Positions 21,501-45,555 of a stretch of DNA of 45,555 bases are shown piece by piece; the first letter of the stretch is position 1; each line of letters begins with the position of its first letter. Source of the stretch: a virus; the UHGV virus genome UHGV-2198558. One strand, written 5' to 3'. The translations under genes and the position numbers were made by a program. The notes beneath the pieces are model-generated. The model was not told the DNA's origin. It made no database searches and saw only the letters and a list, made by a program, of their open reading frames with translations.

Positions 21501-21568
21501 GAGTGTGTAAGCGACAAAGCGTGGCAAGGTCAAAATCCAATAAACAATCATACAGGAGGAACACGAAT

Positions 21569-22663
21569 ATGAGAATCATTACTTCAGAACAGGTATCCGC
21601 AGGACATCCCGACAAGATCTGTGACCAAATCGCGGATGCCATCGTGACAGACTGCCTTCAGCATGACCGCAGCAGTCGTGTTGCGATAGAGTGTCTTTTC
21701 AAGAACCGCTGTCTTGTGATCGCCGGTGAGCTGACCAGTACCCATGAGCCGGACTACAAGGCTCTGGTGCAGCAGGTGTTCGACCGTATCAACAACGGCG
21801 GAGCTGAGAACAGCGATGCGGGACTTGACTACAAGCTGGACTTCACCGCCGATGATCTGGACATTGCGATTCTGGTCGATCACCAGAGCAATGACATTGC
21901 GCTCGGTGTGAATGTCGGCGGTGCAGGAGATCAGGGTATGATGTACGGCTATGCGACCAACGAAACGCCGGAGATGCTCCCGATCCCCTTCGTGCTGGCT
22001 ACCAGATTTCTGGAACTGCTGAAAGCCTACCCCTGCCGTATGCTGAAAGCCGATGCAAAGGCACAGGTCAGCTATGACTATGACAGCGGTCGCATTACCA
22101 CCTTCCTCTGCTCGGTGCAGCATACACACGATGTGGATGTTGAGGACTTCAAGCCCATCATCGAAAAGCTGATGGTGAGAACGGCAACCGAATACGGGCT
22201 GAATACAGACTTTGCAAAGCTCGTCAACCCGACCGGCAGATTTGTCATAGGCAGTTCCTTTGCGGACTGCGGCGTTACCGGACGCAAGCTCGCCTGCGAT
22301 ACCTATGGCGGTATCGGGCATATCGGCGGCGGTGCAATGTCCGGCAAAGATCCGTCTAAGGTTGACCGCAGCGGCGCATATGCAGCAAGAAAAATCGCAA
22401 GGGATATCGTCAGCGCCGGATATTCAGACAAGGCAGAGGTGCAGATCGCATACGCCATCGGTGTGGCAGAGCCCGTATCCGTGTATGTAGAGACTTTTGG
22501 CACGGAGCATCAGGATACGGAGTTCATCAACCAGTATGTTCGTGAGAATTATGACCTCACGCCGAGGGGAATCATCGAAGGGCTGCATCTGCTCGATGTG
22601 GACTATAACGCCATTTCCGCATACGGACACTTCGGAAAACAGAACCTTCCGTGGGAACTATAA
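21569..22663 (+). CDS. metK: S-adenosylmethionine synthetase
   Basis: Collinear with bacterial MetK: SAGHPDKICDQIAD, GAGDQGMMYGYA, DTYGG, GGGAMSGKDPSKVDRSGAYAARKIA; GGAGGA RBS before ATG 21569. Confidence 0.88.
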   Translation: MRIITSEQVSAGHPDKICDQIADAIVTDCLQHDRSSRVAIECLFKNRCLVIAGELTSTHEPDYKALVQQVFDRINNGGAENSDAGLDYKLDFTADDLDIAILVDHQSNDIALGVNVGGAGDQGMMYGYATNETPEMLPIPFVLATRFLELLKAYPCRMLKADAKAQVSYDYDSGRITTFLCSVQHTHDVDVEDFKPIIEKLMVRTATEYGLNTDFAKLVNPTGRFVIGSSFADCGVTGRKLACDTYGGIGHIGGGAMSGKDPSKVDRSGAYAARKIARDIVSAGYSDKAEVQIAYAIGVAEPVSVYVETFGTEHQDTEFINQYVRENYDLTPRGIIEGLHLLDVDYNAISAYGHFGKQNLPWEL

Positions 22664-24097: not shown

Positions 24098-24583
24098 ATG
24101 ACACTGACAGAGAACTTCATTCGTGATGCGATACAGCTTGACAGCGGTGCAGAGGTCATGTACGGCAGCGATCAGATCTATGACACCTACCCCTGCCGCT
24201 TTCCGACTGTCGAGTTCCAGCTCATGGCAACGGATGCACTTGCGGAGGTCGCAGACCGCATCCGAATGGAGAAAGGCTATCTCCCGATGCATCCGAGGGA
24301 CGGGCGCACGGACGATGTTGACAATGACGGCTGGTACGACTTTTATATCGGGATTAGCAAGCTCCCCAGCGATCATAAGGAATGCAAACTTGACAGCAGC
24401 ATTAGTTTCGTGGTCGTCAATTCAGATTCCGATGACAACGAGGATATGTACAGCATTGACCTGACTGAAACAGAGCAGGCGTATGTGTATGAAATACTGA
24501 ACCGGCAATGCCGGAGATATCACGGGAAGGACTGTGCCACGCTTCTGGCAGAGTCTGAAAAGGAGCTGATGGATACAGCATGA
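24098..24583 (+). CDS. Hypothetical protein
   Basis: AGGAGGA RBS before ATG 24098; 161 aa; stop overlaps the nrdD start. Confidence 0.55.
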   Translation: MTLTENFIRDAIQLDSGAEVMYGSDQIYDTYPCRFPTVEFQLMATDALAEVADRIRMEKGYLPMHPRDGRTDDVDNDGWYDFYIGISKLPSDHKECKLDSSISFVVVNSDSDDNEDMYSIDLTETEQAYVYEILNRQCRRYHGKDCATLLAESEKELMDTA

Positions 24584-26721
24584 GGATAATAAAACGAAAC
24601 GGCGCTGAGGTGCCGTATGACTGCGAAAAGATACGAGCCGCAATATCAGCGGCAAATGATGAAGTGCCGGAGAAGATATCAGATACAGTGATCGGATTCA
24701 TTGTCGGGAATGTAGAAAAACGCTGTCATGCCCTTGCAAGACCTGTCCATGTCGAAGAAGTCCAGGACATGGTTCTTGATGAACTGGACAAGGCCGAGGC
24801 TTACAAACTTGCACGGCACTACAGTGAGTACCGCCTGTGGCATGAGCAGCAGCGCCGTATGAACACCACCGACGGCAAGATTCTCAGTCTGCTGGAACGC
24901 AACAACGAGGAGGCAAAGCAGGAGAACGCCAACAAGAACCCCATCATCAACAGCACGCTCCGTGACTATATGGCGGGAGAAGTCAGTCGGGATATATGTC
25001 GGCGCTTCCTGTTTCCGGAGGATGTGATCGCCGCCCATGATGACGGCATCATTCATGTGCATGACCTCGACTACATCGCAGAGCCGATGCACAATTGCTG
25101 TCTGGTGAATCTGGAGGATATGCTTCAAAACGGCACAGTGGTATCCGGTACTATGATTGAGAAGCCGCACAGCTTTTCGACTGCCTGCAATATCGCAACG
25201 CAGATCATTGCACAGGTGGCATCAAATCAGTACGGCGGACAGACGGTATCTCTGGCACATCTTGCGCCTTTCGTGGATATCAGCCGACAGAAAATTCGTG
25301 CCGAGGTGTTCGAGGATGTGAACTGCGACTGCGGTGCAAAGCTGTCTGAAAAAGAACTGGACTACATCGTAGAAAAGCGCGTGCGACGGGAAGTCAAGCG
25401 AGGCGTACAAACGATCCAGTATCAGATCAACACGCTCCTGACAACCAACGGTCAGACACCGTTCGTGACGGTATTCATGTATCTGGACGAGGCACCGGAG
25501 GGACAGACCAGAGATGACCTTGCACTCATTATCGAGGAAACGCTGCTTCAGCGTATCGAGGGCGTGAAAAACGAGAAGGGCGTGTGGATCACACCGGCAT
25601 TCCCGAAGCTGATCTATGTTCTCGATGAGGACAACATTCAGCCCGGTTCCAAGTATTACTACCTCACCGAGCTTGCGGCGAAGTGTACCGCAAAGCGTAT
25701 GGTTCCCGACTATATTTCCGCAAAGGTGATGAAACGTCTGAAGGGTGATGTGTATGCCTGCATGGGCTGCCGGTCATTCCTGACACCTTCTGCCGACCAC
25801 AAATACTACGGCAGATTCAATCAGGGAGTCGTCACGATCAACCTTGTGGATGTTGCGTGTAGCGCAGGCGGAGACGAAGATAAATTCTGGCAGCTTCTTG
25901 ATGAACGCTGCGAACTGTGCCGCAAGGCTCTGATGTGCAGGCATGAACGTCTGAAAGGTACGCCGTCCGATGTTGCACCGATCCTCTGGCAGTATGGCGC
26001 ACTTGCGAGACTGAAGAACGGTGAGGTCATTGACAATTTGCTGTATAACAACTACAGCACGATCTCCCTCGGCTATGCCGGCATCGCGGAAATGACCTAC
26101 CGCATGACAGGCTGTTCGCATACAGAGTCGGAGGGAAAATCCTTCGCCATTTCAGTGATGCATTTTCTGAACGATAAGTGCAGCAAATGGAGAGCTGAAA
26201 GCAATATCTCGTTCTCGCTATACGGCACGCCGATGGAATCTGTGACCTACAAATTTGCAAAGTGTCTGCAAAGGCGGCATGGTATTATTCCGCACGTCAC
26301 GGACAGGAGCTACATTACCAACAGCTATCATGTCCATGTGACAGAGCCGATCGACGCCTTCAGCAAGTTGTCCTTTGAAGCGGAGTTTCAGGAGCTTTCT
26401 CCCGGCGGTGCGATTTCGTATGTAGAAGTGCCGAACCTTCAGAACAACATTCCTGCGGTTCTGGCACTCATGAAACACATTTACGAAACGATTTTATATG
26501 CTGAACTCAACACTAAGTCCGACTACTGTCAGGCTTGTGGCTATGACGGGGAGATGCAGATCGTGGAAGAGGACGGCAAGCTGATCTGGGAATGCCCGAA
26601 CTGCGGCAACCGTGACCAGCGGACAATGAATGTCTGCCGCCGCACCTGCGGATATCTCGGAACGCAGTTCTGGAATCAAGGGCGCACACAGGAGATCGCA
26701 GAAAGGGTGATGCACCTGTGA
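24580..26721 (+). CDS. nrdD: Anaerobic ribonucleoside-triphosphate reductase
   Basis: N-terminal ATP-cone; C-terminal zinc ribbon CQACG...CPNCG; glycyl-radical motif RRTCGYLG; 713 aa. Confidence 0.88.
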   Translation: MRIIKRNGAEVPYDCEKIRAAISAANDEVPEKISDTVIGFIVGNVEKRCHALARPVHVEEVQDMVLDELDKAEAYKLARHYSEYRLWHEQQRRMNTTDGKILSLLERNNEEAKQENANKNPIINSTLRDYMAGEVSRDICRRFLFPEDVIAAHDDGIIHVHDLDYIAEPMHNCCLVNLEDMLQNGTVVSGTMIEKPHSFSTACNIATQIIAQVASNQYGGQTVSLAHLAPFVDISRQKIRAEVFEDVNCDCGAKLSEKELDYIVEKRVRREVKRGVQTIQYQINTLLTTNGQTPFVTVFMYLDEAPEGQTRDDLALIIEETLLQRIEGVKNEKGVWITPAFPKLIYVLDEDNIQPGSKYYYLTELAAKCTAKRMVPDYISAKVMKRLKGDVYACMGCRSFLTPSADHKYYGRFNQGVVTINLVDVACSAGGDEDKFWQLLDERCELCRKALMCRHERLKGTPSDVAPILWQYGALARLKNGEVIDNLLYNNYSTISLGYAGIAEMTYRMTGCSHTESEGKSFAISVMHFLNDKCSKWRAESNISFSLYGTPMESVTYKFAKCLQRRHGIIPHVTDRSYITNSYHVHVTEPIDAFSKLSFEAEFQELSPGGAISYVEVPNLQNNIPAVLALMKHIYETILYAELNTKSDYCQACGYDGEMQIVEEDGKLIWECPNCGNRDQRTMNVCRRTCGYLGTQFWNQGRTQEIAERVMHL

Positions 26722-29544: not shown

Positions 29545-29776
29545 ATGTGCGGTCGTGACCGCTTACACAGAGATTTCTATGCTCAAGGGCGACGATCTGA
29601 AATATCTGTATGACTATCTTTCCGGCTTTATCGGCAGACCGGTGTATACACACGAGATTTCTGCTGTGGTGATGGCTTACAGAGAGCAGATCAGGGAGGA
29701 CTTCCTCGATCTGTGCAGGAACGCAAAGGAGGCGGATGATGGATCAGAAACACTTGACTCTCGGCAGCTTATTTGA
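29531..29776 (+). CDS. Hypothetical small protein
   Basis: GGGGAGGA RBS before ATG 29531; overlaps flanking methyltransferase genes. Confidence 0.4.
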   Translation: MTKHECAVVTAYTEISMLKGDDLKYLYDYLSGFIGRPVYTHEISAVVMAYREQIREDFLDLCRNAKEADDGSETLDSRQLI

Positions 29777-32339
29777 CGGCTCCGGTGGCTTTCCGCTTGG
29801 CGGCATCCTTGCAGGGATCGAGCCGAAGTGGAGCAGCGAAATTGAACCATTCCCGGTGCTTGTCACGCACAAGCGGCTGCCGCAGGTGAAGCACTACGGC
29901 GATGTATCCAAACTGAACGGAGCAGAGCTTCCGCCGGTGGATATCATCACCTTCGGCAGCCCGTGTCAGGATCTGTCCATAGCGGGCAAGCGCGCCGGAA
30001 TCCATGACGGTGATCGGTCAAACCTGTTCTTTCAGGCGATCCGCATCATCAAAGAAATGAGGGATGCAACAAATGGACGATATCCGCGATACTGCGTCTG
30101 GGAAAATGTCCCCGGCGCTTTCTCATCCAACGGAGGAAACGACTTCAAGGCTGTCCTCGAAGCAGTTATCGGAGTTAAAGAAAAAGGGATCGAGGTGCCT
30201 GCGCCTGAAAATCACAGATGGGCAAAATCAGACGTATATCTGGGAGACGGATGGAGCGTGGCTTACCGAGTTTTCGATGCTCAATACTGGGGTGTCCCCC
30301 AACGCAGAGCAAGAATCTACCTTGTCGCAGATCTTGCTGGTGGAAGTGCCGGAGAAGTATTATTTAAGTCCGAAGGCGTGTCTGGGTATACTCCGCAGGG
30401 CTTCCGTGCGTGGCAAGGAGCTGCCGGAGGTGCTGAAGAAGGCACTGGAGAGACAGGCGGGCGGTCTGACGCTGGAGGTGGAACCCTCTGCCTGAATACA
30501 CAGGGCAACAGCGGCGTCGGCATCACCGAGAACAAGGCTCTCGCACTGGTCGCACAGGATCATGGCAATCATCCGGCTGTGCTTCATGCGGTCGGTATCG
30601 ACGGCTACAATGCTGCGGTCACCGATGATACGGCAGCAACGCTTGGTGTGAACTGCGGAATGTCCACAGGCAGAAACGGTGTCCTGCAGGCGGCGGGATT
30701 TTCCACAGAACACAGTGCAAAAGCAAGGAGCATCGGCTACGAGGAAGAGGTATCTCCCACACTTCGAGCCGGTGTTGTTCCGGCGGCAATGGAGTTATAT
30801 GAAAATCATGGGCAGGACAGCAGATTCAGAGGACCTTTGGATGTAGCACAGCCTGTGACTGCTACCTACGGCATGGGCGGCAACAATCAGCCGCTTGTGG
30901 TAGAGAACAATCCCACGGACGGCAGAGCGAAGATCAATCCCGACGGTGTGTTTCAGACGCTCTGCGGACGAGCCGGAACAGGCGGAAACAACACGCCGCT
31001 TGTTGCTGAACCGGTCACGCTGAAAATCAGGTCGGGATGTGAGGGCGGTGGCAAGGGTGCTTTATGGCAGACCGACAAGTCTGCTACGCTCGGCACAAAC
31101 AATGACCAGAGTGTATTTGTTCCGTTCGTCAAGGGAACACGTCCGCACTCTGCTGAAGAGGGGCAAACATGGAAACCCGGCGAGGTCGCCAATACACTGA
31201 ATACCTTTGATGTCGGTGAAAGTCGCTGCAATGAACTTGTGGTGGAAGAGCCGCAGATCAGGGCTTTCGGTGTATGCAGCAAGCATTCCAATGCGATGAT
31301 GTCCGACAATCCGCACAGCGGATTCTATGAGGCGACCACAAGCAGAACGCTCGACCAAAGTGGTGGAAATTCTGTGACATCGAATCAGGGCGGCATCTGC
31401 GTGGTAGCACCTGCGCCTGAAACCTTCGATGTGCGTTTCACATCAGACGGTACAAAAAACGCTCGTGGGCATTGCTATCCGACAGACATCTCCCGATGCC
31501 TTGATACGAGCGAGGGATCGCCAGACTCGAATCACGGCGGTGTCGCTGTGGTGGCTCTTGAACCGGGGGCTGCATCACGTGTCGGCGGTCATGTATACAG
31601 TGACGGCAAAAGCGGTACGCTTCGAGCCAATGCCGGCGATAATCAGCAGGCTGTTGTGGTCGCCGAGCCGGAGACCTATGCTCTGCAAGGCTCGATGATC
31701 GGTCGTGCCGACAAGAACGGTCCGCAGGGTGATGGCATCAACGAGGATGTGTGCTTTACGCTCAATACATCGGACAGACACGCCATTGCCGCACCTGATC
31801 CGTCCTTCACAATTTCCCGCGACAACCATTTTGCCGTTTCGGAGGATGTATCCGTTACAGCCGTGGCAAGAGGCCCTGCGGCAGTCGCAGCACCGGCAGA
31901 CCACTATTGCACCAGTAAGAATTCGCATCATACGGTCGCCGCCCATGAGCAGGCAAACACGCTGGTCGCTTCCGACTGGAAGGATCCGCCGCTTGTGAAC
32001 GACCTTCCGAATGACGAGCCAGTATATATCGTTCGCCGCTTGACTCCGGTTGAGTGCGCCAGATTGCAGGGATTCCCTGACTGGTGGTGTGCCGACCTTG
32101 CAATTACTGATCCTTCCGATGAGGAGATCGCCTTCTGGACGGAGGTCTGGGAGACATGGCGGCAGGTCACAAATCCCAAGGGCAAGCCGAAAACGGAAAA
32201 GCAGATCCGCAAATGGCTGGCTGATCCGTACACGGATTCAGCGGAGTACAAGCTGTGGGGCAACGGTGTCTCAGAGCCGGTCGTATACTTCGTGCTTTCC
32301 GGCATCGCATGGGCAGCGCAGAGAGATACACAAAAGTGA
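29736..32339 (+). CDS. C5-cytosine DNA methyltransferase with an unusually long, repetitive target-recognition region
   Basis: Motif I LFDGSGGF, motif IV GSPCQDLSIAGKR, motif VI ENVPGA, motif X RRLTPVECARLQGFPDWW; about 550 aa between motifs VIII and IX with at least 8 TL-type motifs; 867 aa. Confidence 0.85.
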   Translation: MMDQKHLTLGSLFDGSGGFPLGGILAGIEPKWSSEIEPFPVLVTHKRLPQVKHYGDVSKLNGAELPPVDIITFGSPCQDLSIAGKRAGIHDGDRSNLFFQAIRIIKEMRDATNGRYPRYCVWENVPGAFSSNGGNDFKAVLEAVIGVKEKGIEVPAPENHRWAKSDVYLGDGWSVAYRVFDAQYWGVPQRRARIYLVADLAGGSAGEVLFKSEGVSGYTPQGFRAWQGAAGGAEEGTGETGGRSDAGGGTLCLNTQGNSGVGITENKALALVAQDHGNHPAVLHAVGIDGYNAAVTDDTAATLGVNCGMSTGRNGVLQAAGFSTEHSAKARSIGYEEEVSPTLRAGVVPAAMELYENHGQDSRFRGPLDVAQPVTATYGMGGNNQPLVVENNPTDGRAKINPDGVFQTLCGRAGTGGNNTPLVAEPVTLKIRSGCEGGGKGALWQTDKSATLGTNNDQSVFVPFVKGTRPHSAEEGQTWKPGEVANTLNTFDVGESRCNELVVEEPQIRAFGVCSKHSNAMMSDNPHSGFYEATTSRTLDQSGGNSVTSNQGGICVVAPAPETFDVRFTSDGTKNARGHCYPTDISRCLDTSEGSPDSNHGGVAVVALEPGAASRVGGHVYSDGKSGTLRANAGDNQQAVVVAEPETYALQGSMIGRADKNGPQGDGINEDVCFTLNTSDRHAIAAPDPSFTISRDNHFAVSEDVSVTAVARGPAAVAAPADHYCTSKNSHHTVAAHEQANTLVASDWKDPPLVNDLPNDEPVYIVRRLTPVECARLQGFPDWWCADLAITDPSDEEIAFWTEVWETWRQVTNPKGKPKTEKQIRKWLADPYTDSAEYKLWGNGVSEPVVYFVLSGIAWAAQRDTQK

Positions 32340-37866: not shown

Positions 37867-38250
37867 ATGAGTACGAATTCAAGAGTCGGAATTCTGCATC
37901 AGGACGGCGTCACGGAGACAATCTACTGCCATTGGGACGGCTACCCCGAACACCAGATGCCCATCCTCACCGAGCATTATAACACCGCCGAGAAGGTCAA
38001 GGCACTGCTTGCCCTTGGAGACATCAGCATCCTCGGCGAGCGCCTTGCTCCCGATGCGGATGAGCCGCACAGCTTTGAAAAGCCTGCCGATGGTGTGACG
38101 GTTGCTTACCACCGCGACCGCAAAGAGCCGATGCAGCCTGCGGTCACCCACAAGAGCGTTGTTTCCCTGATGAGCGATGACTGGGGCATTCCGTATTACT
38201 ACCTTTTCGATGAGGAAAAAGGAGCATGGCTTCCGCCGACCGAGGACTGA
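37867..38250 (+). CDS. Hypothetical protein
   Basis: GGAGG RBS 9 nt before ATG; 127 aa; no own promoter, co-transcribed with 37480. Confidence 0.6.
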   Translation: MSTNSRVGILHQDGVTETIYCHWDGYPEHQMPILTEHYNTAEKVKALLALGDISILGERLAPDADEPHSFEKPADGVTVAYHRDRKEPMQPAVTHKSVVSLMSDDWGIPYYYLFDEEKGAWLPPTED

Positions 38251-38313
38251 TAGGTTCAGCCCTGCGGGGCTGACTTGCCCCACGTTGTCCTTTGTGCGGT
38301 TTTCCTGCGATAA

Positions 38314-38366
38314 GCTTGCCCCTGCGGAAAGCCGCCTCACACGGCGCGTTTGTGTGCCTCCTGTGG
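38314..38366. repeat. Cassette boundary repeat
   Basis: cttgcccctgcggaaagccgcctcacacggcgcgtttgtgtgcctcctgtggg. Confidence 0.5.
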
Positions 38367-38430
38367 GCTTGGTGCTATGTATACAACAAATGGCGCAGAT
38401 ACGCCGATTTTGTTCTGAACATTTAGCCGC

Positions 38431-38459
38431 TTGCTATTCCGGAAAGATCATGGTAATAT
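38431..38459 (+). promoter_or_regulatory. Cassette promoter 6
   Basis: TTGCTA, 17-nt spacer, TAATAT, then conserved leader. Confidence 0.5.
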
Positions 38460-38515
38460 GCTACACAACGGAAGGGCAAACGCCCACCGAATACAAAACA
38501 CGGAGGTAAACCACC

Positions 38516-38898
38516 ATGACAAAGAAGGAAATGAAAGCCGCAGTTGCCAAGCTGAAGATGCTGCAGAACGGCAAAGCCGCCCTTGAGGGAATGACCGAAG
38601 CGGACTGCCTTGAGCTTTTCGGGATCAGCAGAGCGCAGGCACTTGCAAACACAAACGCCGCCCTTGCCAAAACCGAGCAGGAGATTTNNNNNNNNNNNNN
38701 NNNNNNNNNNNNGAGCATCCGCTGACAGGCATCGACAAACAGCTCTTCGAGATCGCAGCAAAGCACCTGATCACGGTGCAGGAGCGCGGAGACCTTGAAG
38801 CCCGCCACTGCGACAGCGAGGACTTCATCGAGGGTTCGGTCTGGGGGCTGGAAGCCGCCCTCAAGGATGCCTACGAGGCAGGACGCAAGAGCAAGTAA
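38516..38898 (+). CDS. Hypothetical protein interrupted by an assembly gap
   Basis: CGGAGGT RBS and ATG 38516; coding resumes after the N-run and ends at TAA 38896-38898. Frame across the gap cannot be determined. Confidence 0.4.
38688..38712. other. Assembly gap (25 N)
   Basis: Run of n characters in the sequence. Confidence 0.99.
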
Positions 38899-38960
38899 CC
38901 AAACGGAACAGCGCAGCCCTTCCGCAGGGAGGGGCTGCCAATCCCGAAGGAGGAAAGAAC

Positions 38961-39140
38961 ATGGATACATACGCACAGCTTGAAATGCTGACCGCAGTCA
39001 TCGCAAACCTGTCGGCCACGGGAACATGGACGGAGCGAGAAGTGATGGAAACGCTGCTGGATGTCTTTGAACCGAAGGAGCTTGAACAGCTCGGCTACGG
39101 CGACTGCGTGAACGCATACTTGGAAGAGTACGGCGGATAG
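38961..39140 (+). CDS. Small acidic protein (59 aa), below the ORF-track length cutoff
   Basis: AAGGAGGAAA RBS 7 nt before ATG 38961; MDTYAQLEMLTAVIANLS...EEYGG, stop TAG 39138-39140. Confidence 0.5.
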   Translation: MDTYAQLEMLTAVIANLSATGTWTEREVMETLLDVFEPKELEQLGYGDCVNAYLEEYGG

Positions 39141-39197
39141 CGACGACACACGCACCACGTTGCCTCGTGTGGGGCGGTGCCGGGGAGATGCGTACAG

Positions 39198-39240
39198 CTT
39201 GCCCCTGCGAAAAGCCGCCTTACACGGCGCGTTCTGGCGC
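39198..39240. repeat. Cassette boundary repeat
   Basis: cttgcccctgcgaaaagccgccttacacggcgcgttctggcgc. Confidence 0.5.
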
Positions 39241-39310
39241 GTCCTATACGATGTACAATTCCGCCCGACTTCCCGCCTCATGTTTGTCACATTTATTTTG
39301 CAGACAGACG

Positions 39311-39339
39311 TGGACTTTTCTGCGAAAAGACGGTAATAT
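39311..39339 (+). promoter_or_regulatory. Cassette promoter 7
   Basis: TGGACT, 17-nt spacer, TAATAT. Confidence 0.5.
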
Positions 39340-39386
39340 GTGACTACCGCAAGAGAAGCGGAATCAATCAAAAGGAGCGAATCTAC

Positions 39387-39740
39387 ATGAAAATTCTGGT
39401 ATGCGAACCCGGCAAGCACCCCTACGTCAAGGACATCGAGTCGGGGCTGGAGAACCTTCAGCACGAGGTGGACGGACTGATTCAGGCCCTCTACCCATTT
39501 TCCGAAGAGGCGGCTGTTGTGTGCAACGAAGAAGGGCTGTTCCGCGATGACCTCGAATGGAACAGAACGGTCGATCCCTATGGTCCGATCAAGGGAACAT
39601 TCTTCATTTGTGGGCTCGGCTTTGAAGATTTTACAGGACTGACCGATGAACAGATCGAAAAGTACACTAAGCTCTTCTGGCCTCCTGAGCTTTTCATCCC
39701 GACACCGAACGGCATGGTGGTGCTTCACATTGTGGAATGA
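39387..39740 (+). CDS. DUF3846-like protein
   Basis: AAAGGAG RBS; MKILVCEPGKHPYVKDIE...YPF...VVCNEEG...GTFFICG pattern, recalled from mobile-element proteins of Firmicutes. Confidence 0.55.
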   Translation: MKILVCEPGKHPYVKDIESGLENLQHEVDGLIQALYPFSEEAAVVCNEEGLFRDDLEWNRTVDPYGPIKGTFFICGLGFEDFTGLTDEQIEKYTKLFWPPELFIPTPNGMVVLHIVE

Positions 39741-39843
39741 CCGCAACAGGGGCAGGGCTTCGGCTCTGCTCCGCACTATTCCCCGGTCATAATGTACACA
39801 ACTGAACGCCGAAAAATGCAGAAATGATCGTGATTACTCACGC

Positions 39844-39872
39844 TTGATAATGTAGGCAAGAAGAGTTATACT
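39844..39872 (+). promoter_or_regulatory. Cassette promoter 8
   Basis: TTGATA, 17-nt spacer, TATACT; leader hairpin variant gggcggaaagccc. Confidence 0.5.
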
Positions 39873-39929
39873 GTGTACAACGGAAGGGCGGAAAGCCCAG
39901 CCGAAAACGAAAATGCGGAGGTACACACC

Positions 39930-40109
39930 ATGAAAACGAAGCAGGAACTGATCGAGAAGGCAAAGAAAGAGTGGGGCGAGACTTGGAACGAGGGCATGAT
40001 CGAGTACGATGCCGAGTACAACGAGTACATCGTCTGGGTAGGCAAGCCGGACATCTACAAAGCCTTCTTCGATGCCGACACCCTCAGATGCATTGGCACG
40101 AAGTGCTGA
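39930..40109 (+). CDS. Small hypothetical protein (59 aa)
   Basis: GCGGAGGT RBS; followed by a ccgccc-ttcg-gggcgg hairpin. Confidence 0.5.
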   Translation: MKTKQELIEKAKKEWGETWNEGMIEYDAEYNEYIVWVGKPDIYKAFFDADTLRCIGTKC

Positions 40110-40164
40110 GAACAACCGCCGCCCTTCGGGGCGGCACAACACCAATACTAAGGAGGACATTTAC

Positions 40165-40437
40165 ATGAGCGAGAACACAGAAAAGCGCGATGCAGCCGAA
40201 GAACTAGAACTTACCGATGCACAGGCAGACCGCAACGATGACATCTACGAGGCAGCTTTTGAATTCTGCAAGGTGCTGACCGAGAACCCCGACCTCGAAT
40301 GGGACATGGCGTTCCTCGGTGAGATCGCCGACCTTGCCGCTGGCATCATGACCGAGCAGGGACACAAGGTGCGGTTCCCCAGTGTGGTCACCGAGCAGGA
40401 CGGCACGCAGTACATTGAAGAATACTACGGCGGCTGA
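40165..40437 (+). CDS. Small highly acidic protein (90 aa)
   Basis: AAGGAGG RBS before ATG 40165; roughly 23 Asp/Glu against about 6 basic residues. Confidence 0.55.
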   Translation: MSENTEKRDAAEELELTDAQADRNDDIYEAAFEFCKVLTENPDLEWDMAFLGEIADLAAGIMTEQGHKVRFPSVVTEQDGTQYIEEYYGG

Positions 40438-40523
40438 TCGGCAAAACGGAGCAGTCCTTCTGCGGAGGGGCTGTTCCACGCCACGTTCGCTTGTGTGGGG
40501 GGCTTACGGCTTTCTGCGGATAT

Positions 40524-40575
40524 CTTGCCCCGCGATAAAAGCCGCCCACACGGCGCATTTGTGTGCCTCCTGTGG
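40524..40575. repeat. Cassette boundary repeat
   Basis: cttgccccgcgataaaagccgcccacacggcgcatttgtgtgcctcctgtgg. Confidence 0.5.
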
Positions 40576-40638
40576 CAAGGCATAATATGTACAACAACCG
40601 ACAAAAAATCGCCTTGCACATTCTGGTAGTTTAGCCGC

Positions 40639-40667
40639 TTGATATATCTGCCGAAAAGAGTTATAGT
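40639..40667 (+). promoter_or_regulatory. Cassette promoter 9
   Basis: TTGATA, 17-nt spacer, TATAGT; leader variant with cgggaaaccg hairpin. Confidence 0.5.
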
Positions 40668-40723
40668 GTGTACAACGGAACGGGAAACCGAGCCGAAAAC
40701 TACGAAAGAACGAGGTAAACACT

Positions 40724-40960
40724 ATGTGGCACGAAGGCACGATTCTGGCACCGACCAAGGAAGGCAAGACGGTGGTTCACTACTGGGCAAAGGTCTACGA
40801 CGAGGGCAGCCAGTACGGCATCAACGAGGGCAGAATCAGTAAACTGACACTCAAGGAGAATGGCAAGGTCATCTACAACTATGACAGAGGCGAGGATGTA
40901 CCCGAGCAGAACGAGGCTGCGGAGATTGCCCTTGCGATCCTGATGTACGAGTACAAGTAA
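40724..40960 (+). CDS. Small hypothetical protein (78 aa)
   Basis: ORF directly downstream of cassette promoter 9 and its leader; weak SD (ACGAGG). Confidence 0.5.
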   Translation: MWHEGTILAPTKEGKTVVHYWAKVYDEGSQYGINEGRISKLTLKENGKVIYNYDRGEDVPEQNEAAEIALAILMYEYK

Positions 40961-41048
40961 ATAGAACGGTCGGTAGGCGGTAGCATTAAGCCGCCCATCC
41001 AAACCAAGACGGACACACATATAAATTCAAGGTGGATATACATAGGAG

Positions 41049-41077
41049 AGGCTTGCAGCACGCAGGCCTTTTCTTTA
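41049..41077 (+). terminator. Rho-independent terminator closing the cassette array
   Basis: 8-bp stem aggcttgc / gcaggcct (one G-U), 5-nt loop, then TTTTCTTT. Confidence 0.65.
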
Positions 41078-41108
41078 TGCAGATTTTTTGAGAAAAGGAG
41101 TGATGCGG

Positions 41109-41582
41109 ATGGCTCAGAGAGGCAGAAAACCGACGCCGACAGCAATCAAGGAACTGGAAGGCAATCCCGGAAAACGACCGCTGAATGATGCAGAGCCGAA
41201 GCCGGAACGCAAGGCACCGCCCTGTCCGAAGTGGCTGGAGCCCGAAGCAAAAAAGGAATGGCGCAGGCTGTCAAAGCAACTGGAGCAGATTGGTGTGCTG
41301 ACCGAGGTCGATCAGGCGGCATTCGCATCCTACTGTCAGGCATACGCACGATGGAAAGAAGCCGAGGAATTCATGACCCAGCACGGCACGATCGTAAAAA
41401 CAAAATCAGGTTACTGGCAGCAGGTTCCGCAGGTATCCATTGCGCAAACTTATCTGAAGATCATGAACAAGATCGCAGAGCAGTTTGGCCTGACCCCGGC
41501 GGCAAGAAGCCGTATCACTGCCGGCGCAGATATGAAAAACGCTGCCGTTGACGATATGGATGAACTTCTCGGAGGTGGCTGA
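41109..41582 (+). CDS. terS: Terminase small subunit (P27-family-like)
   Basis: MAQRGRKPTPTAIKELEGNPGKRPLN N-terminus; AAGGAG RBS 8 nt before ATG 41109; stop overlaps the terL start. Confidence 0.8.
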   Translation: MAQRGRKPTPTAIKELEGNPGKRPLNDAEPKPERKAPPCPKWLEPEAKKEWRRLSKQLEQIGVLTEVDQAAFASYCQAYARWKEAEEFMTQHGTIVKTKSGYWQQVPQVSIAQTYLKIMNKIAEQFGLTPAARSRITAGADMKNAAVDDMDELLGGG

Positions 41583-44248
41583 TGGCGAGAACGGCAAAGG
41601 CAAGAGAAAGACCTGCCAACTATCCGAAACTGAAGGATTATAAACCGACACGCTTTATGCTGCCGGAATCGCACTACGATGCGGCAAAGGCTGACCGAGC
41701 TGTGCGGTTCATCGAGAATCTCTGCCATACCAAAGGACGCTGGGCAGGCAAACCGTTCTGGCTGCTTCCGTGGCAGGAACAGATCATCCGGGATATTTTC
41801 GGCATCGTCAAAGAGGACGATATGCGGCAATTTCGTACCGCCTATGTCGAAATTCCAAAGAAAAATGGGAAGCAGCTTGCACTGGATACACCGATCCCGA
41901 CTCCGCAGGGATTCACCAATATGGGAGATCTGAAGGTCGGAGATACAGTATTCGATGAAAACGGCATTCCGTGCCATGTGGTTGCGAAAAGTCCTGTGGA
42001 TGATACAGAGCAAGCCTACAAGCTGACCTTCAAGGACGGCACCTCGATCATTGCCGGGGAAAGGCATCTGTGGAACTGTCAGTATATTTACGGCAAACGC
42101 AAGGATGTTCTCTGGACGACCGGCGAGATCTATCGCAGGACAACGGAATACAGACAGCGTTTTTCCGACAGACCACAGACAAAGCGGGATTCCCTTATCC
42201 GAATTCCGGTGTGCGGTGTCCTTCAGACAGAAGCGGCAGTTTTACCGATTGATCCGTATCTGTACGGCTACTGGCTCGGAAACGGTAATGTGACCATGCC
42301 GGAGATCACTGTTCGGACGGAGGATGTCGAGGATATCATCTCGAATATTCCGTATAAGGTACACAACCGTTATCCGCAGAAATGCGGCGGCAGTGAGATC
42401 ATAAAGTACAATGAACTGAAAGCAGTACTACTTGACAGCTTCCGTGAAAAGAAGATCCGACCAGAATATCTGAGGGCATCCGCAGAGCAGAGATGGGCAT
42501 TACTGCAAGGGCTTATGGATTCGGACGGCTGTATCGGCGAACGCAAAGGGCAAAGTGTGTATGTCACAACGCTGCGAGAGCTGGCGCTTTCCGTCAGAGA
42601 ACTGCTGTGGTCACTCGGCATCAAAAATGCAGTGAAATGTGAGCCTTCTACACGGCATGGGTGGCCGACCGGCGAGATTTTGTATATCGTCCGTTTTACA
42701 ACCTTTGATGGCCAACCGACATCAAGGCTTAAACGCAAAAATACACGCACACAGGCGCGGTTAAAGGAAACTCGCTCCTGTTTTCATTATCTGCTGGATA
42801 TTCAACCTGTAAATCATCCTGTAAAAATGCAGTGCATTCAGGTGGACAGTCCGAGTCACCAATATCTCGCAGGACCGTCATTTGTGCCTACGCACAACAG
42901 TGAGCTTGCAGCGGCAATTGCACTGTATCTGCTCTACGCCGACAACGAGCCGTCTGCTGAGGTCTACGGCGCTGCTGCTGATCGTGGGCAGGCATCCATT
43001 GTATTCGATGTCGCCAAAAGAATGGTTGAGATGACACCGGCACTTCTGAAACGCTCAAAAATCATGGCGGCGACAAAGCGTCTGGTGAATTACAGTAATG
43101 TTGGCTTTTATCAGGTGCTTTCAGCGGAAGTCGGTACAAAGCACGGATTGAATGTATCCGGTCTGGTTTTGGATGAACTTCATGCCCAACCGAACCGCAG
43201 CCTTGTGGATGTTCTCACAAAGGGTTCCGGTGATGCCCGTACTCAGCCGCTGTACTTCCTGATCACAACCGCCGGAACGGATCGCAACAGCATCTGCTAC
43301 GAGTATCACACGAAAGCAAAAGATATTCTGGACGGCAGGCGCATTGATCCGTCCTTCTATCCTGTGATCTACGGCTTGAACGATGATGACGACTGGAACG
43401 CAGAGGAGTCATGGTATAAGGCAAATCCCTCGCTCGGATACACTATCGCCATCGACCGAGTCCGCGATGCTCACCGGGAAGCCCTTACAAATCCCGCTGA
43501 AGAAAATGTATTCCGTCAGCTGAGGCTTGACCAGTGGGTAGGCAGTGCGGTGGCATGGATTCCGGAGCATATCTACGACAGGGGCAATCTTCCGATCGAC
43601 CTCGAAAAGCTCCGGGGACGGGAGTGCTACGCAGGTCTTGACCTATCCAGCACATCGGATATCACGGCATTTGTGCTGGTGTTCCCTCCGCTGCATGACG
43701 GCGAGAAATACATCGTTGTCCCGCACTTCTGGCTGCCGAGAGAAACGCTCGATTTGCGAGTACGGCGAGACCATGTTCCCTACGATGTATGGGAGCGCAT
43801 GGGATTATTTCATATCACCGAGGGCAATGTGGTCGATTACAATTTCGTGCGGAAAACGATCAACGAGCTGCACACGATGTACAACATCAAGGAAATTGCT
43901 GCCGACCGCTGGAATGCCACACAGCTTATCACAGACCTTGAGGGAGACGGATTTACCGTTGTTCCGATGGGTATGGGCTTCAAGGATATGTCCCCGCCGA
44001 TGAAGGAACTGTACAAGCTCATACTCGAGGGGCAGTTTATCCACGGCGGCAACCCTGTACTCCGCTGGATGGCAGGAAATGTGGTCGCTGAAATTGATGC
44101 AGCGGAGAACATCAAACCAAGTAAAAAGAAAAGTACAGAAAAGATTGACGGTATCGTGGCATGGATCATGGCACTTGACCGCTGCATCCGCCACGAAATG
44201 CAGGGCAGTGTCTATGACGAACCCGGCCACGATCTTGTGGTCATCTGA
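41582..44248 (+). CDS. terL: Terminase large subunit interrupted by an intein
   Basis: 888 aa against a typical size near 550; ATPase P-loop region YVEIPKKNGK / SELAAAIALYLLYAD split by a 342-aa insertion; C-terminal nuclease-domain-like sequence. Confidence 0.85.
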   Translation: MARTAKARERPANYPKLKDYKPTRFMLPESHYDAAKADRAVRFIENLCHTKGRWAGKPFWLLPWQEQIIRDIFGIVKEDDMRQFRTAYVEIPKKNGKQLALDTPIPTPQGFTNMGDLKVGDTVFDENGIPCHVVAKSPVDDTEQAYKLTFKDGTSIIAGERHLWNCQYIYGKRKDVLWTTGEIYRRTTEYRQRFSDRPQTKRDSLIRIPVCGVLQTEAAVLPIDPYLYGYWLGNGNVTMPEITVRTEDVEDIISNIPYKVHNRYPQKCGGSEIIKYNELKAVLLDSFREKKIRPEYLRASAEQRWALLQGLMDSDGCIGERKGQSVYVTTLRELALSVRELLWSLGIKNAVKCEPSTRHGWPTGEILYIVRFTTFDGQPTSRLKRKNTRTQARLKETRSCFHYLLDIQPVNHPVKMQCIQVDSPSHQYLAGPSFVPTHNSELAAAIALYLLYADNEPSAEVYGAAADRGQASIVFDVAKRMVEMTPALLKRSKIMAATKRLVNYSNVGFYQVLSAEVGTKHGLNVSGLVLDELHAQPNRSLVDVLTKGSGDARTQPLYFLITTAGTDRNSICYEYHTKAKDILDGRRIDPSFYPVIYGLNDDDDWNAEESWYKANPSLGYTIAIDRVRDAHREALTNPAEENVFRQLRLDQWVGSAVAWIPEHIYDRGNLPIDLEKLRGRECYAGLDLSSTSDITAFVLVFPPLHDGEKYIVVPHFWLPRETLDLRVRRDHVPYDVWERMGLFHITEGNVVDYNFVRKTINELHTMYNIKEIAADRWNATQLITDLEGDGFTVVPMGMGFKDMSPPMKELYKLILEGQFIHGGNPVLRWMAGNVVAEIDAAENIKPSKKKSTEKIDGIVAWIMALDRCIRHEMQGSVYDEPGHDLVVI
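41873..42898 (+). mobile_element. Intein (342 aa) in TerL, non-canonical Gln at position 1, with LAGLIDADG-like motifs
   Basis: Block A-like QLALDTPIPT, block B-like GERHLW, block F-like MQCIQVD, block G FVPTHN followed by Ser; internal LYGYWLGNGN and LLQGLMDSDGCI. Confidence 0.6.
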
Positions 44249-44263
44249 CAGGAGGTAATGTTT

Positions 44264-45555
44264 ATGAGCTTTTTAAGCTGGCTCGGCATCAGCAAGCCGA
44301 GAGATGCGCCGATGCTGCCTGATATTCAGGACAATGTCCGTGATTCTGGAAATCTGTTCGTATTCGGCATGACGCACAGCGGTGAACGTGTCGATGAGCG
44401 CACGGCGATGCAGATCGTGACTGTTTACGCCTGTGTTCGACTGCTCTCCAACACCATCGCAGGACTGCCGCTGCACCTATACAGATACACCGGCAAAGGC
44501 GATGATAAGGAATTAGCCATTGACCATCCGCTGTACAAAATACTCTATCGGCAGCCGAATCCCGAAATGAGTTCATTCTCGTTCTGGGAAGCACTGATGT
44601 GCCACCTTTTACTATGGGGCAACGCCTATGCACAGATTGTCCGGGACGGCAAAAACGGCATCCTCGGTCTCTATCCCCTGCTTCCCGAAAATGTCGAGAT
44701 CGACCGTGATCCGAAATCCGGCGACCTGATCTACACTTACCACGCCTACACCGACGAAAAGCCCGGTGAGCATGACAAGGATATTATCTTCCGCAGGGAT
44801 GAAATCTTACACATCCCCGGTCTGGGATTCAATGGACTGGTCGGTTTCTCACCGATAGCGATGATGAAAAATGCACTCGGTGCGGTCATGGCAGTAGAGC
44901 GATACGGCAGCGCCTTCTTCAAAAACGGAGCGCAGCCTGCCGGAGTTCTCGAACATCCGGGCGTGCTGAAGGATCCGCAGAAGATCCGCGACAACTGGAC
45001 AAAGGCATACGGCGGCGCACGGAACGCACACCGCATCGCAGTCCTCGAAGAAGGTATGCAGTATAAGCCAATCTCCCTGCCGCCGGAGGATTCGCAGTTT
45101 CTGTCCACAAGAGAATTCGATGTGGAGGAAATCTGCCGGATGTTTCAGGTTCCGCCGCATCTGGTACAAGACCTCAAACGCAGTACCTTCAATAACATCG
45201 AGCATCAGGGTATTGCATTTGTGCAGTATTCTCTTATGCCGTGGATCATTCGCATCGAAAAGGGCATCATGAAAGACCTTCTTCTGGAGGAAGAACAGAA
45301 TGTATATTTCCCGAAATTCAATGTGGACGGTCTGATGCGCGGCGACTACCAGAGCCGAATGAACGCCTACGCTATCGGTGTCGGCAACGGCTTTATGTCG
45401 CCCAATGATGTGCGCCGTCTTGAAAATATGGACTTGATCCCTGACGATCAGGGCGGCAACGACTACTACCTGAACGGCTCGTATAACAAGCTGGAGGATG
45501 CAGGTGCGGCATATGCTCTGAATCAGCCGCAGGAACAGCCGGATACCGAGGAACA
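44264..45555 (+). CDS. Portal protein (partial; continues beyond the right edge)
   Basis: Open frame from ATG 44264 to the window end (430 codons), absent from the ORF track because it has no stop in the window; GGAGG RBS; directly after terL. Confidence 0.8.
   Translation, partial: MSFLSWLGISKPRDAPMLPDIQDNVRDSGNLFVFGMTHSGERVDERTAMQIVTVYACVRLLSNTIAGLPLHLYRYTGKGDDKELAIDHPLYKILYRQPNPEMSSFSFWEALMCHLLLWGNAYAQIVRDGKNGILGLYPLLPENVEIDRDPKSGDLIYTYHAYTDEKPGEHDKDIIFRRDEILHIPGLGFNGLVGFSPIAMMKNALGAVMAVERYGSAFFKNGAQPAGVLEHPGVLKDPQKIRDNWTKAYGGARNAHRIAVLEEGMQYKPISLPPEDSQFLSTREFDVEEICRMFQVPPHLVQDLKRSTFNNIEHQGIAFVQYSLMPWIIRIEKGIMKDLLLEEEQNVYFPKFNVDGLMRGDYQSRMNAYAIGVGNGFMSPNDVRRLENMDLIPDDQGGNDYYLNGSYNKLEDAGAAYALNQPQEQPDTEE

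Follow-up and report, generated by a model that had tools for sequence, protein, structure and literature searches.

The 45,555-nucleotide virus genome UHGV-2198558 (hereafter the window, by which we mean the whole stretch of DNA that was analysed) carries, within the gene for the large subunit of its terminase (TerL), an in-frame insert of 342 residues. Judged by its sequence, the insert belongs to the class 3 inteins and encloses a LAGLIDADG endonuclease domain. We consider it probable, at roughly 0.82, that this element, lodged between the Lys and the Ser of the Walker A motif (KKNGK/S; slashes mark junctions throughout), is functional as a class 3 intein and that its nested LAGLIDADG domain is a homing endonuclease.

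The TerL precursor, identified from the list of open reading frames (ORFs) and by Pfam, is an 888-residue protein encoded at 41582-44248 (stop codon included), on the plus strand like all other parts of the gene described below. Pfam TerL_nuclease was matched at residues 589-872 (E 3e-47). TerL_ATPase was matched at residues 442-580 only, which correspond to profile positions 37-177 of 178 (71 bits), but when the protein was spliced in silico (residues 1-97 joined to 440-888, 546 residues) the match spanned profile positions 1-177 and rose to 90 bits. Using the spliced sequence as the query, we found proteins of three sizes among the closest TerL relatives, of 546, 703 and 888 residues. The 546-residue alleles (e.g. 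P0121, P0124 and P0170) are 94-97% identical to the query in protein, and the two longer forms are mostly 92-98% identical. The short alleles read IPKKNGK/SELAAAIALY, and upon alignment the gap is exactly 342 residues, from Gln98 to Asn439 of the precursor. The DNA of P0124 was taken to represent the intein-free allele; the intein-free junction of L013 reads CCGAAGAAAAACGGAAAA/TCTGAGCTTGCGGCGGCC. The exact gap, together with the restored ATPase profile, places the element between the Lys and the Ser of the Walker A motif, GK[S/T]. Precise removal of the insert thus restores a conserved motif of the host protein, and homologues that lack it exist, as expected of an intein.

The precursor is accordingly divided into an N-extein of 97 residues (41582-41872), which ends with the first half of the Walker A motif (IPKKNGK; Lys97 at 41870-41872), the intein (41873-42898; Gln1 to Asn342), and a C-extein (42899-44248) that begins with Ser+1 (Ser440, 42899-42901; the Ser of the Walker A motif) and comprises the rest of the ATPase and the nuclease domain. 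The N-terminal junction reads IPKKNGK/QLALDTPIPTPQG and the C-terminal junction, at 42898/42899, SFVPTHN/SELAAAIALY. A preliminary description of this DNA had proposed that TerL is about 340 residues too long, that the insertion splits the P-loop between KKNGK and SELAAAIALY, and that the intein extends from 41873 to 42898. It had allowed that homologues lacking the insert might align differently across the region. The 546-residue alleles bear out the length, the split and the boundaries to the residue, and they align with the same junction, KKNGK/SELAAA.

To which class the intein belongs was assessed by searching its 342 residues with phmmer against all chains of the Protein Data Bank (PDB). 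The best match was the class 3 DnaB intein of M. smegmatis, DnaBi1 (6bs8; E 1.3e-21), followed by the class 3 DnaB1 intein of M. chimaera (6rix and 6riy; E 1e-18 and 5.5e-18). Only after these came the class 1 intein gp41-1 and its engineered variant with the Trp-Cys-Thr (WCT) triplet (E 6e-6 and 3e-7). Together with the 289 homologues described below, the similarity to a solved class 3 intein is far greater than chance would give. In the alignments with the class 3 DnaB inteins, LALDTPIPTPQGF of the query stands opposite LALDTPLPTPSGW, GERHLW opposite AQHQW, and the C-terminal part with Cys321 and Thr340, VKMQCIQVDSPSHQYLAGPSFVPTHN, is paired with its DnaB counterpart. Trp67, Cys321 and Thr340 of the TerL intein thereby fall on Trp67, Cys118 and Thr137 of DnaBi1, its WCT triplet, of which Cys118 is the catalytic cysteine (PMC6195587). 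Block B, GERHLW (42056-42073), contains His65 (B:10; 42065) and Trp67 (B:12; 42071). Block F, VKMQCIQVDSPSHQYLAG (42824-42877), contains the segment MQCIQVD, which aligns with VRCVEVD of 6bs8 and carries Cys321 (F:4; 42833-42835), the predicted class 3 nucleophile. Block G, FVPTHN (42881-42898; PTHN at 42887-42898), contains Thr340 (G:5; 42890-42892), His341 and Asn342.

Class 3 inteins have been described as monophyletic (PMC4031507), and they are defined by a non-nucleophilic residue 1 that co-varies with Trp B:12, Cys F:4 and Thr G:5, and by Ser or Thr at +1 (PMC2807308). The TerL intein has Gln1, the WCT triplet and Ser+1, and it is related to established class 3 inteins. It also has the features of a Hint domain, i.e. 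blocks A, B, F and G, a C-terminal Asn, Ser+1 and a fold that matches those of solved inteins. An AlphaFold2 model of the intein, built on a 32-sequence alignment (mean predicted local distance difference test score, pLDDT, 92.2; predicted template-modelling score, pTM, 0.90), was compared with the PDB by Foldseek. The splicing domain matched 6bs8 and 6rix with TM-scores of 0.83-0.88 normalised to the target, and the whole model matched PI-SceI (E 3e-17; TMq 0.72) and also TliVMA, PhoVMA and PI-PfuI.

The insert might also be a permanent domain of TerL that is never excised, the terminase working with it in place. We found no specific support for this idea and regard it as very improbable, because the Lys and the Ser/Thr of Walker A would be kept apart by 342 residues, alleles 94-97% identical in protein function without the insert, and the insert bears every hallmark of a self-excising Hint domain.

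Residue 1 of the intein, codon 98 of the precursor (41873-41875), is preceded by KKNGK and followed by LALDTPIPT; it is CAG, for the non-nucleophilic Gln. A search with the intein alone returned 289 homologues (E ≤ 1e-3), and when these were pooled with the results of the TerL search, 147 independent cluster representatives had a readable N-terminal junction. Residue 1 is Gln in 126 of them, Glu in 11, Ala in seven, Leu in two and Met in one; Cys, Ser or Thr was found in none of the intact copies. At the DNA level, the residue is encoded by CAG in five loci, by CAA in one and by GAG (Glu) in one relative. The identical 888-residue protein is present in NCBI nr as DAZ37244.1 ('MAG TPA: Terminase large subunit [Caudoviricetes sp.]'). 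It has been seen on 11 contigs of several origins and belongs to a 90% cluster of 217 members. These figures bear on the idea that the intein is of class 1 and that its first codon, really one for Cys or Ser, appears as Gln through an error of sequencing or assembly. What speaks for it is the rarity of Gln1 among inteins generally, yet the predominance of Gln at the junctions, the use of both of its codons and the 11 identical contigs exclude a sequencing error at codon 98, and conversion of CAG to any Cys or Ser codon would take at least two substitutions. We therefore give a misread codon next to no chance.

Other phage inteins lead to a similar view of residue 1. Homologues of the TerL intein were found in 606 deposited phage records, and we inspected directly eight inteins of the WCT type. 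The residue that follows the P-loop GK is Gln in Gordonia phage Gmala1 and Glu in Bacteroides phage BF766P4; in TerL it is Arg for Rhodobacter phage RcKickapoo, Lys for Escherichia phage EJP2, Leu for Gordonia phage Zipp, Cys for Lactococcus phage AM4, and Ala for both Ec_Makalu_003 and Mycobacterium phage Icee. Seven of the eight have the Cys at the block F position and end in THN followed by Ser or Thr; the end of the Gmala1 intein is SHN/S. Since class 3 is defined by a non-nucleophilic first residue (PMC2807308), Gln1 is, as far as these sequences indicate, unexceptional for the class. The preliminary description had taken the insert for a class-3-like intein with a non-canonical N-terminal Gln, and had listed GERHLW, MQCIQVD, PTHN followed by Ser, and LAGLIDADG-like motifs, while allowing that codon 98 might be an error for Cys or Ser. 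All these features were recovered at the positions given there, the nearest solved structures are indeed class 3, and the Gln is real; it is no anomaly within class 3, however, but typical of the clade found in gut phages.

We infer splicing, its route and the activity of the endonuclease, the mechanism being carried over by homology from the pathway worked out for class 3 inteins with MP-Be DnaB, Dra Snf2 and Msm DnaBi1 (PMC2807308, PMC4031507, PMC6195587). By this pathway, Cys321 of the 888-residue precursor would attack the Lys97-Gln98 peptide bond, assisted by His65 and Trp67, so that the N-extein would be held on Cys321 as a thioester, the block F branched intermediate. The N-extein would then pass to the hydroxyl of Ser+1, cyclisation of Asn342 would free the intein, and an O-to-N acyl shift would make the Lys-Ser peptide bond. 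The end products would be a TerL of 546 residues with an intact P-loop and a free intein-endonuclease of 342 residues. Gln1 would occupy a position without a chemical role. The released endonuclease would presumably target intein-free alleles of TerL and so spread the element.

A different non-canonical route is conceivable, for example a direct attack by the +1 residue, as in the class 2 intein of KlbA, with Cys321 merely structural or activating. The nucleophile at position 1 is missing in class 2 inteins as well, and in a model of the MP-Be DnaB intein the scissile carbonyl lies 5.2 Å from the +1 oxygen and 4.9 Å from Cys F:4 (PMC2807308), so that the two attacks differ little in distance. 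The published class 2 inteins are, however, KlbA orthologues with Ala1, Cys+1 and Asp F:4 (PMC4031507), whereas the TerL intein has Ser+1, Cys F:4 and the full WCT triplet. Moreover, its relatives by sequence are class 3 inteins, in which the C118A and C320A substitutions abolish splicing (PMC6195587; PMC2807308). Such a route seems quite improbable to us, and membership of class 2 itself was rejected on four positions (Gln1, Ser+1, Cys F:4 and His G:6 in TerL; Ala1, Cys+1, Asp F:4 and Ser G:6 in the KlbA orthologues).

Whether the intein is active or decaying had been left open in the preliminary description. To address this question we examined conservation among 59 full-length relatives that are 35-99% identical to the intein in the window. 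His65 and Trp67 are present in all 59, Cys321 in all of the 55 that could be aligned at this position (the other four have alignment gaps), Thr340 in 56, His341 in 55 and Asn342 in 57 of 57 aligned; Ser+1 is found in 96 of 101 complete inteins. The ratio of non-synonymous to synonymous substitutions (dN/dS) was estimated pairwise by the Nei-Gojobori method on codon alignments with the DNA of six relatives, for pairs with unsaturated dS only. The splicing domain gave 0.04-0.13 and the endonuclease domain 0.06-0.11, values that indicate strong purifying selection on both halves of the intein.

An intein that is decaying or inactive, in a TerL that would be a dead gene of a defective prophage and whose precursor never matures, would find some support in the relatives, several of which lie in degraded contexts. 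In P0001 and P0031 the TerL gene is cut short and unrelated genes follow it. The copy in P0091 (242 residues; longest contig 307,903 bp) reads KKQGK-S-ELALDT, with one additional Ser ahead of residue 1, and its reading frame is shifted within the endonuclease domain. P0055, P0103 and P0108 have lost the Ser-Glu that follows THN, as well as a portion of the ATPase. Motif 1 of the endonuclease, too, has an Asn instead of the expected Asp (see below). Against decay stand the low dN/dS in both domains and the conservation of every splicing residue. Copies that have truly decayed, such as P0091 and P0055, look unlike the intact one in the window. The 888-residue ORF is intact, with complete ATPase and nuclease domains, and the identical protein recurs on 11 contigs in a cluster of 217. 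In addition, the genome has terS, the portal gene and the replication module, and the Asn of motif 1 is itself kept in 56 of 59 relatives, unlike random variation. We consider decay unlikely. TerL is indispensable for packaging; that its Walker A motif is split and that the split allele nonetheless persists in many assemblies suggest that splicing works. Thus, on the evidence of sequence conservation and selection, the intein is very probably functional, and it is the class 3 alternative of the preliminary description, rather than the decaying one, that is favoured.

Signs of mobility were also found, although they rest on contrasts between single pairs and carry supporting weight only. Between the window and L009, dS is 0.21 for the intein and 0.67 for the exteins; between L010 and L011, dN is 0.22 for the intein and 0.04 for the exteins. 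The histories of intein and extein thus disagree, as expected of an element that moves between TerL alleles. Immunity of the target site, or co-conversion, was also considered. The junctions of the intein-plus and intein-free alleles differ at 8 of 36 nucleotides, compared with 16.5% over the exteins, which is not clearly above background, and this idea was not retained.

The 703-residue alleles (P0122, P0133 and L012) contain a mini-intein of 157 residues at the same site of TerL, in exteins that are 96-98% identical in protein. Over its first 68 codons the mini-intein is identical to the copy in the window in amino acid sequence and 96% identical in nucleotides, the exteins being 91% identical in nucleotides. 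Directly after RHLWN it departs abruptly from the window copy, and it rejoins it ahead of block F. The full-length and mini forms are thus mosaics, set apart by a cassette that contains the endonuclease. Intein-free, mini-intein and full-length alleles therefore coexist in one lineage of TerL (94-98% protein identity to the spliced query). We also noted that an 8-nucleotide direct repeat, AGCTTGCA, is present at 41874-41881 and 42903-42910. At the start of the intein it is read as cAGCTTGCA (Gln-Leu-Ala) and at the start of the C-extein as gAGCTTGCA (Glu-Leu-Ala); in relatives with Glu1 the repeat is 9 nucleotides long (GAGCTTGCA).

The endonuclease domain is nested within the Hint domain at about residues 106-300 of the intein (42188-42772). 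It was recognised by a Pfam match to LAGLIDADG_3 (precursor residues 303-369; E 1.5e-6) and by Foldseek, which matched it to PI-SceI, TliVMA, PI-PfuI and I-DmoI. The domain has the two-motif LAGLIDADG fold, with two helices and an alpha/beta core. In LAGLIDADG endonucleases an acidic metal-binding residue ends both motifs. The second motif, LLQGLMDSDG (42500-42529), has the canonical Asp218 (Asp in 55 of 59 relatives). In contrast, the first, LYGYWLGNGN (42260-42289), has, by motif alignment, Asn137 (LGNG; 42281-42283) where the metal-binding Asp is expected, so that an acidic residue ends only one of the two. The Asn is found in 56 of 59 members of the TerL intein family, whereas Asp (LGDG) is found in the three outgroups, which have other exteins and Ala1 or Met1, and in each of the seven deposited phage inteins for which the motif could be located. 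In LAGLIDADG enzymes, each of the two active sites receives a catalytic residue from one motif, and a given domain cleaves a single strand (PMC3017599). As the Asn is conserved and the domain is under purifying selection, we speculate that the endonuclease may be strand-biased or nicking.

A second peculiarity of the family is Cys34 (GIPCHVV; 41972-41974), which is invariant in the 59 full-length inteins and in 42 of 42 mini-inteins. Among the eight deposited phage inteins that were inspected, a Cys is found at this position in one, that of RcKickapoo. Cys34 is no counterpart of Cys48, the redox partner of the catalytic cysteine in DnaBi1, which aligns to an Ala of the TerL intein. Possibly, Gln or Glu at position 1, Cys34 and the Asn of motif 1 together define a variant with conditional splicing, for example through a redox switch between Cys34 and Cys321, and with an endonuclease that is a natural nickase and homes by way of a nick instead of a double-strand break. 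This proposal, for which the Cys48-Cys118 redox switch of Msm DnaBi1 is the model, is drawn by analogy and appears unlikely to us; if it were true, maturation of the terminase and packaging of DNA would be conditional through splicing.

The TerL intein can be compared with several known systems. Block A is nearly identical (LALDTPxPTP) in Msm DnaBi1 (6bs8) and Mch DnaB1 (6rix/6riy), and the W, C and T, the penultimate His and the terminal Asn of these mycobacterial inteins align with those of the TerL intein. Both also occupy the P-loop of an ATPase (SVGK/A in the mycobacterial proteins). Unlike the TerL intein, however, the mycobacterial ones are mini-inteins without an endonuclease, have Ala1 and reside in a helicase; they have DxxH rather than GxxH in block B, and the Cys48 of DnaBi1 has no counterpart in the TerL family, which has its own invariant Cys34. 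The prototype of the class, the DnaB intein of mycobacteriophage Bethlehem (MP-Be DnaB; Tori et al., 2010; PMC2807308), is 341 residues long and has a LAGLIDADG endonuclease, its His65 and Trp67 are at identical positions, its Cys F:4 is residue 320 instead of 321, and THN is followed by Thr instead of Ser. It differs in having Pro1 and a helicase host, and its splicing and block F branched intermediate were shown by experiment. PI-SceI and other LAGLIDADG inteins (1vde, 1ef0, 7qsu, 1dq3) likewise consist of a Hint domain with a nested two-motif endonuclease, but they belong to class 1 (Cys1), are 12-16% identical to the TerL intein and end both motifs with an acidic residue, where the TerL intein has the Asn of motif 1.

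Among terminases, the TerL1-a site of mycobacteriophages lies between the invariant Lys and Thr of the P-loop (Kelley et al., 2016; PMC5050341), and TerL1 inteins are listed for phages of cluster E, Cjw1 and Icee among them. TerL of Icee reads RKNGK/ALDVET...HHLW...VCIQID...PTHN/TELLAGIMLYLL. The extein family (Pfam TerL_ATPase/Terminase_1) and the insertion point are the same as in the window (THN/TELLAGIMLYLL after RKNGK in Icee; THN/SELAAAIALYLL after KKNGK here), and so are the WCT signature, the presence of a full-length LAGLIDADG endonuclease and the approximate size (about 330 and 342 residues). The two inteins are, however, only about 33% identical, and Icee has Ala1, Thr+1 and LGDG where the window has Gln1, Ser+1 and LGNG. 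Moreover, cluster E phages infect Actinobacteria and not gut Clostridia.

Several observations weigh against the view that this is a functional class 3 intein with a homing endonuclease, and we consider them together. Position 7 of block B is Gly in the TerL intein, but Asp in DnaBi1 and Ser in MP-Be. The P1A, P1S and P1C variants of MP-Be DnaB still splice, but at a reduced level and with more side cleavage; the identity of residue 1 is thus not entirely neutral. A text search of the literature found no precedent for Gln1 in class 3 and no published splicing assay of such an intein, and the nearest inteins characterised by experiment are about 35% identical to the one in TerL. Lastly, the Asn of motif 1 could mean that the endonuclease makes no double-strand breaks.

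As to genomic context, the window has the appearance of a temperate phage with a coherent genome. Among its products are an S24/HTH repressor, a DUF2800 PD-(D/E)XK nuclease, an Enc34-type single-stranded DNA-binding protein, a family A DNA polymerase, an SNF2 helicase, a D5-type primase-helicase, S-adenosylmethionine (SAM) synthetase, NrdD, three DNA methyltransferases, the two terminase subunits and a portal protein. The small subunit gene, terS (41088-41582; plus strand; 164 residues; Pfam Terminase_4, E 2.9e-31), lies directly 5' of the TerL gene and overlaps it, and a portal-like gene starts at 44265, downstream of TerL. The phage is known from metagenome assemblies only, and a megablast search of positions 38000-45555 against deposited phage genomes gave no match.

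A tblastn search of the remaining window detected no second copy of the TerL type of intein. The family A DNA polymerase ORF (11796-14681), for which the Pfam DNA_pol_A match is partial only, contains an insert of 306 residues at 12789-13706 (plus strand) that reads RTQRW/CLTGDHEILTDKGW...VWVTGN/SGRGIQLQNLP, with Cys1, a penultimate Gly rather than His, a terminal Asn and Ser+1. Its block A has a weak match to the Spl DnaX mini-intein (7cfv; E 1e-3); Pfam gave no match for the insert at E ≤ 0.01, and it has no similarity to the TerL intein. From its sequence it is probably a second intein, of a different type. Elsewhere in the window, the complete SAM synthetase and the anaerobic ribonucleotide reductase NrdD, the latter with ATP-cone and glycyl-radical domains, are encoded as auxiliary metabolic genes at 21503-22663 and 24580-26721 (plus strand) and adjoin the three DNA methyltransferase genes. 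An ORF for a C-5 cytosine DNA methyltransferase (29736-32339; plus strand; 867 residues) matches Pfam DNA_methylase at residues 9-143 only (profile positions 3-129 of 324). Between this match and the C-terminal part lie several hundred residues rich in Gly, Ala and Ser, and the variable or inserted region is thus unusually large.

Class 3 inteins without a nucleophile at position 1 are known from terminase large subunits, mostly in P-loops (PMC2807308), and a survey from 2025 put the class 3 inteins of actinobacteriophages at 287, most of them in TerL and Cas4. Since their presence in terminase P-loops was described in 2010 and 2016, our findings leave the current understanding unchanged, and the TerL intein is a well-preserved, ordinary member of the class. 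Its novelty is modest and lies in the large, Gln1-dominated clade in phages of gut Clostridia (the source names of the relatives include Ruminococcus, Oscillospiraceae, Selenomonadaceae and Lactonifactor). With its 289 homologues, this clade extends class 3 inteins of the TerL P-loop well beyond the actinobacteriophages. Provided that splicing occurs as we infer, the mature terminase of a widespread lineage of gut Caudoviricetes would have 546 and not 888 residues, which matters for annotation, and viability of the phage would hinge on splicing of its Walker A loop by the class 3 route. The coexistence of intein-free, mini and full-length alleles makes this lineage a convenient natural system for the study of homing and of the loss and gain of the endonuclease.

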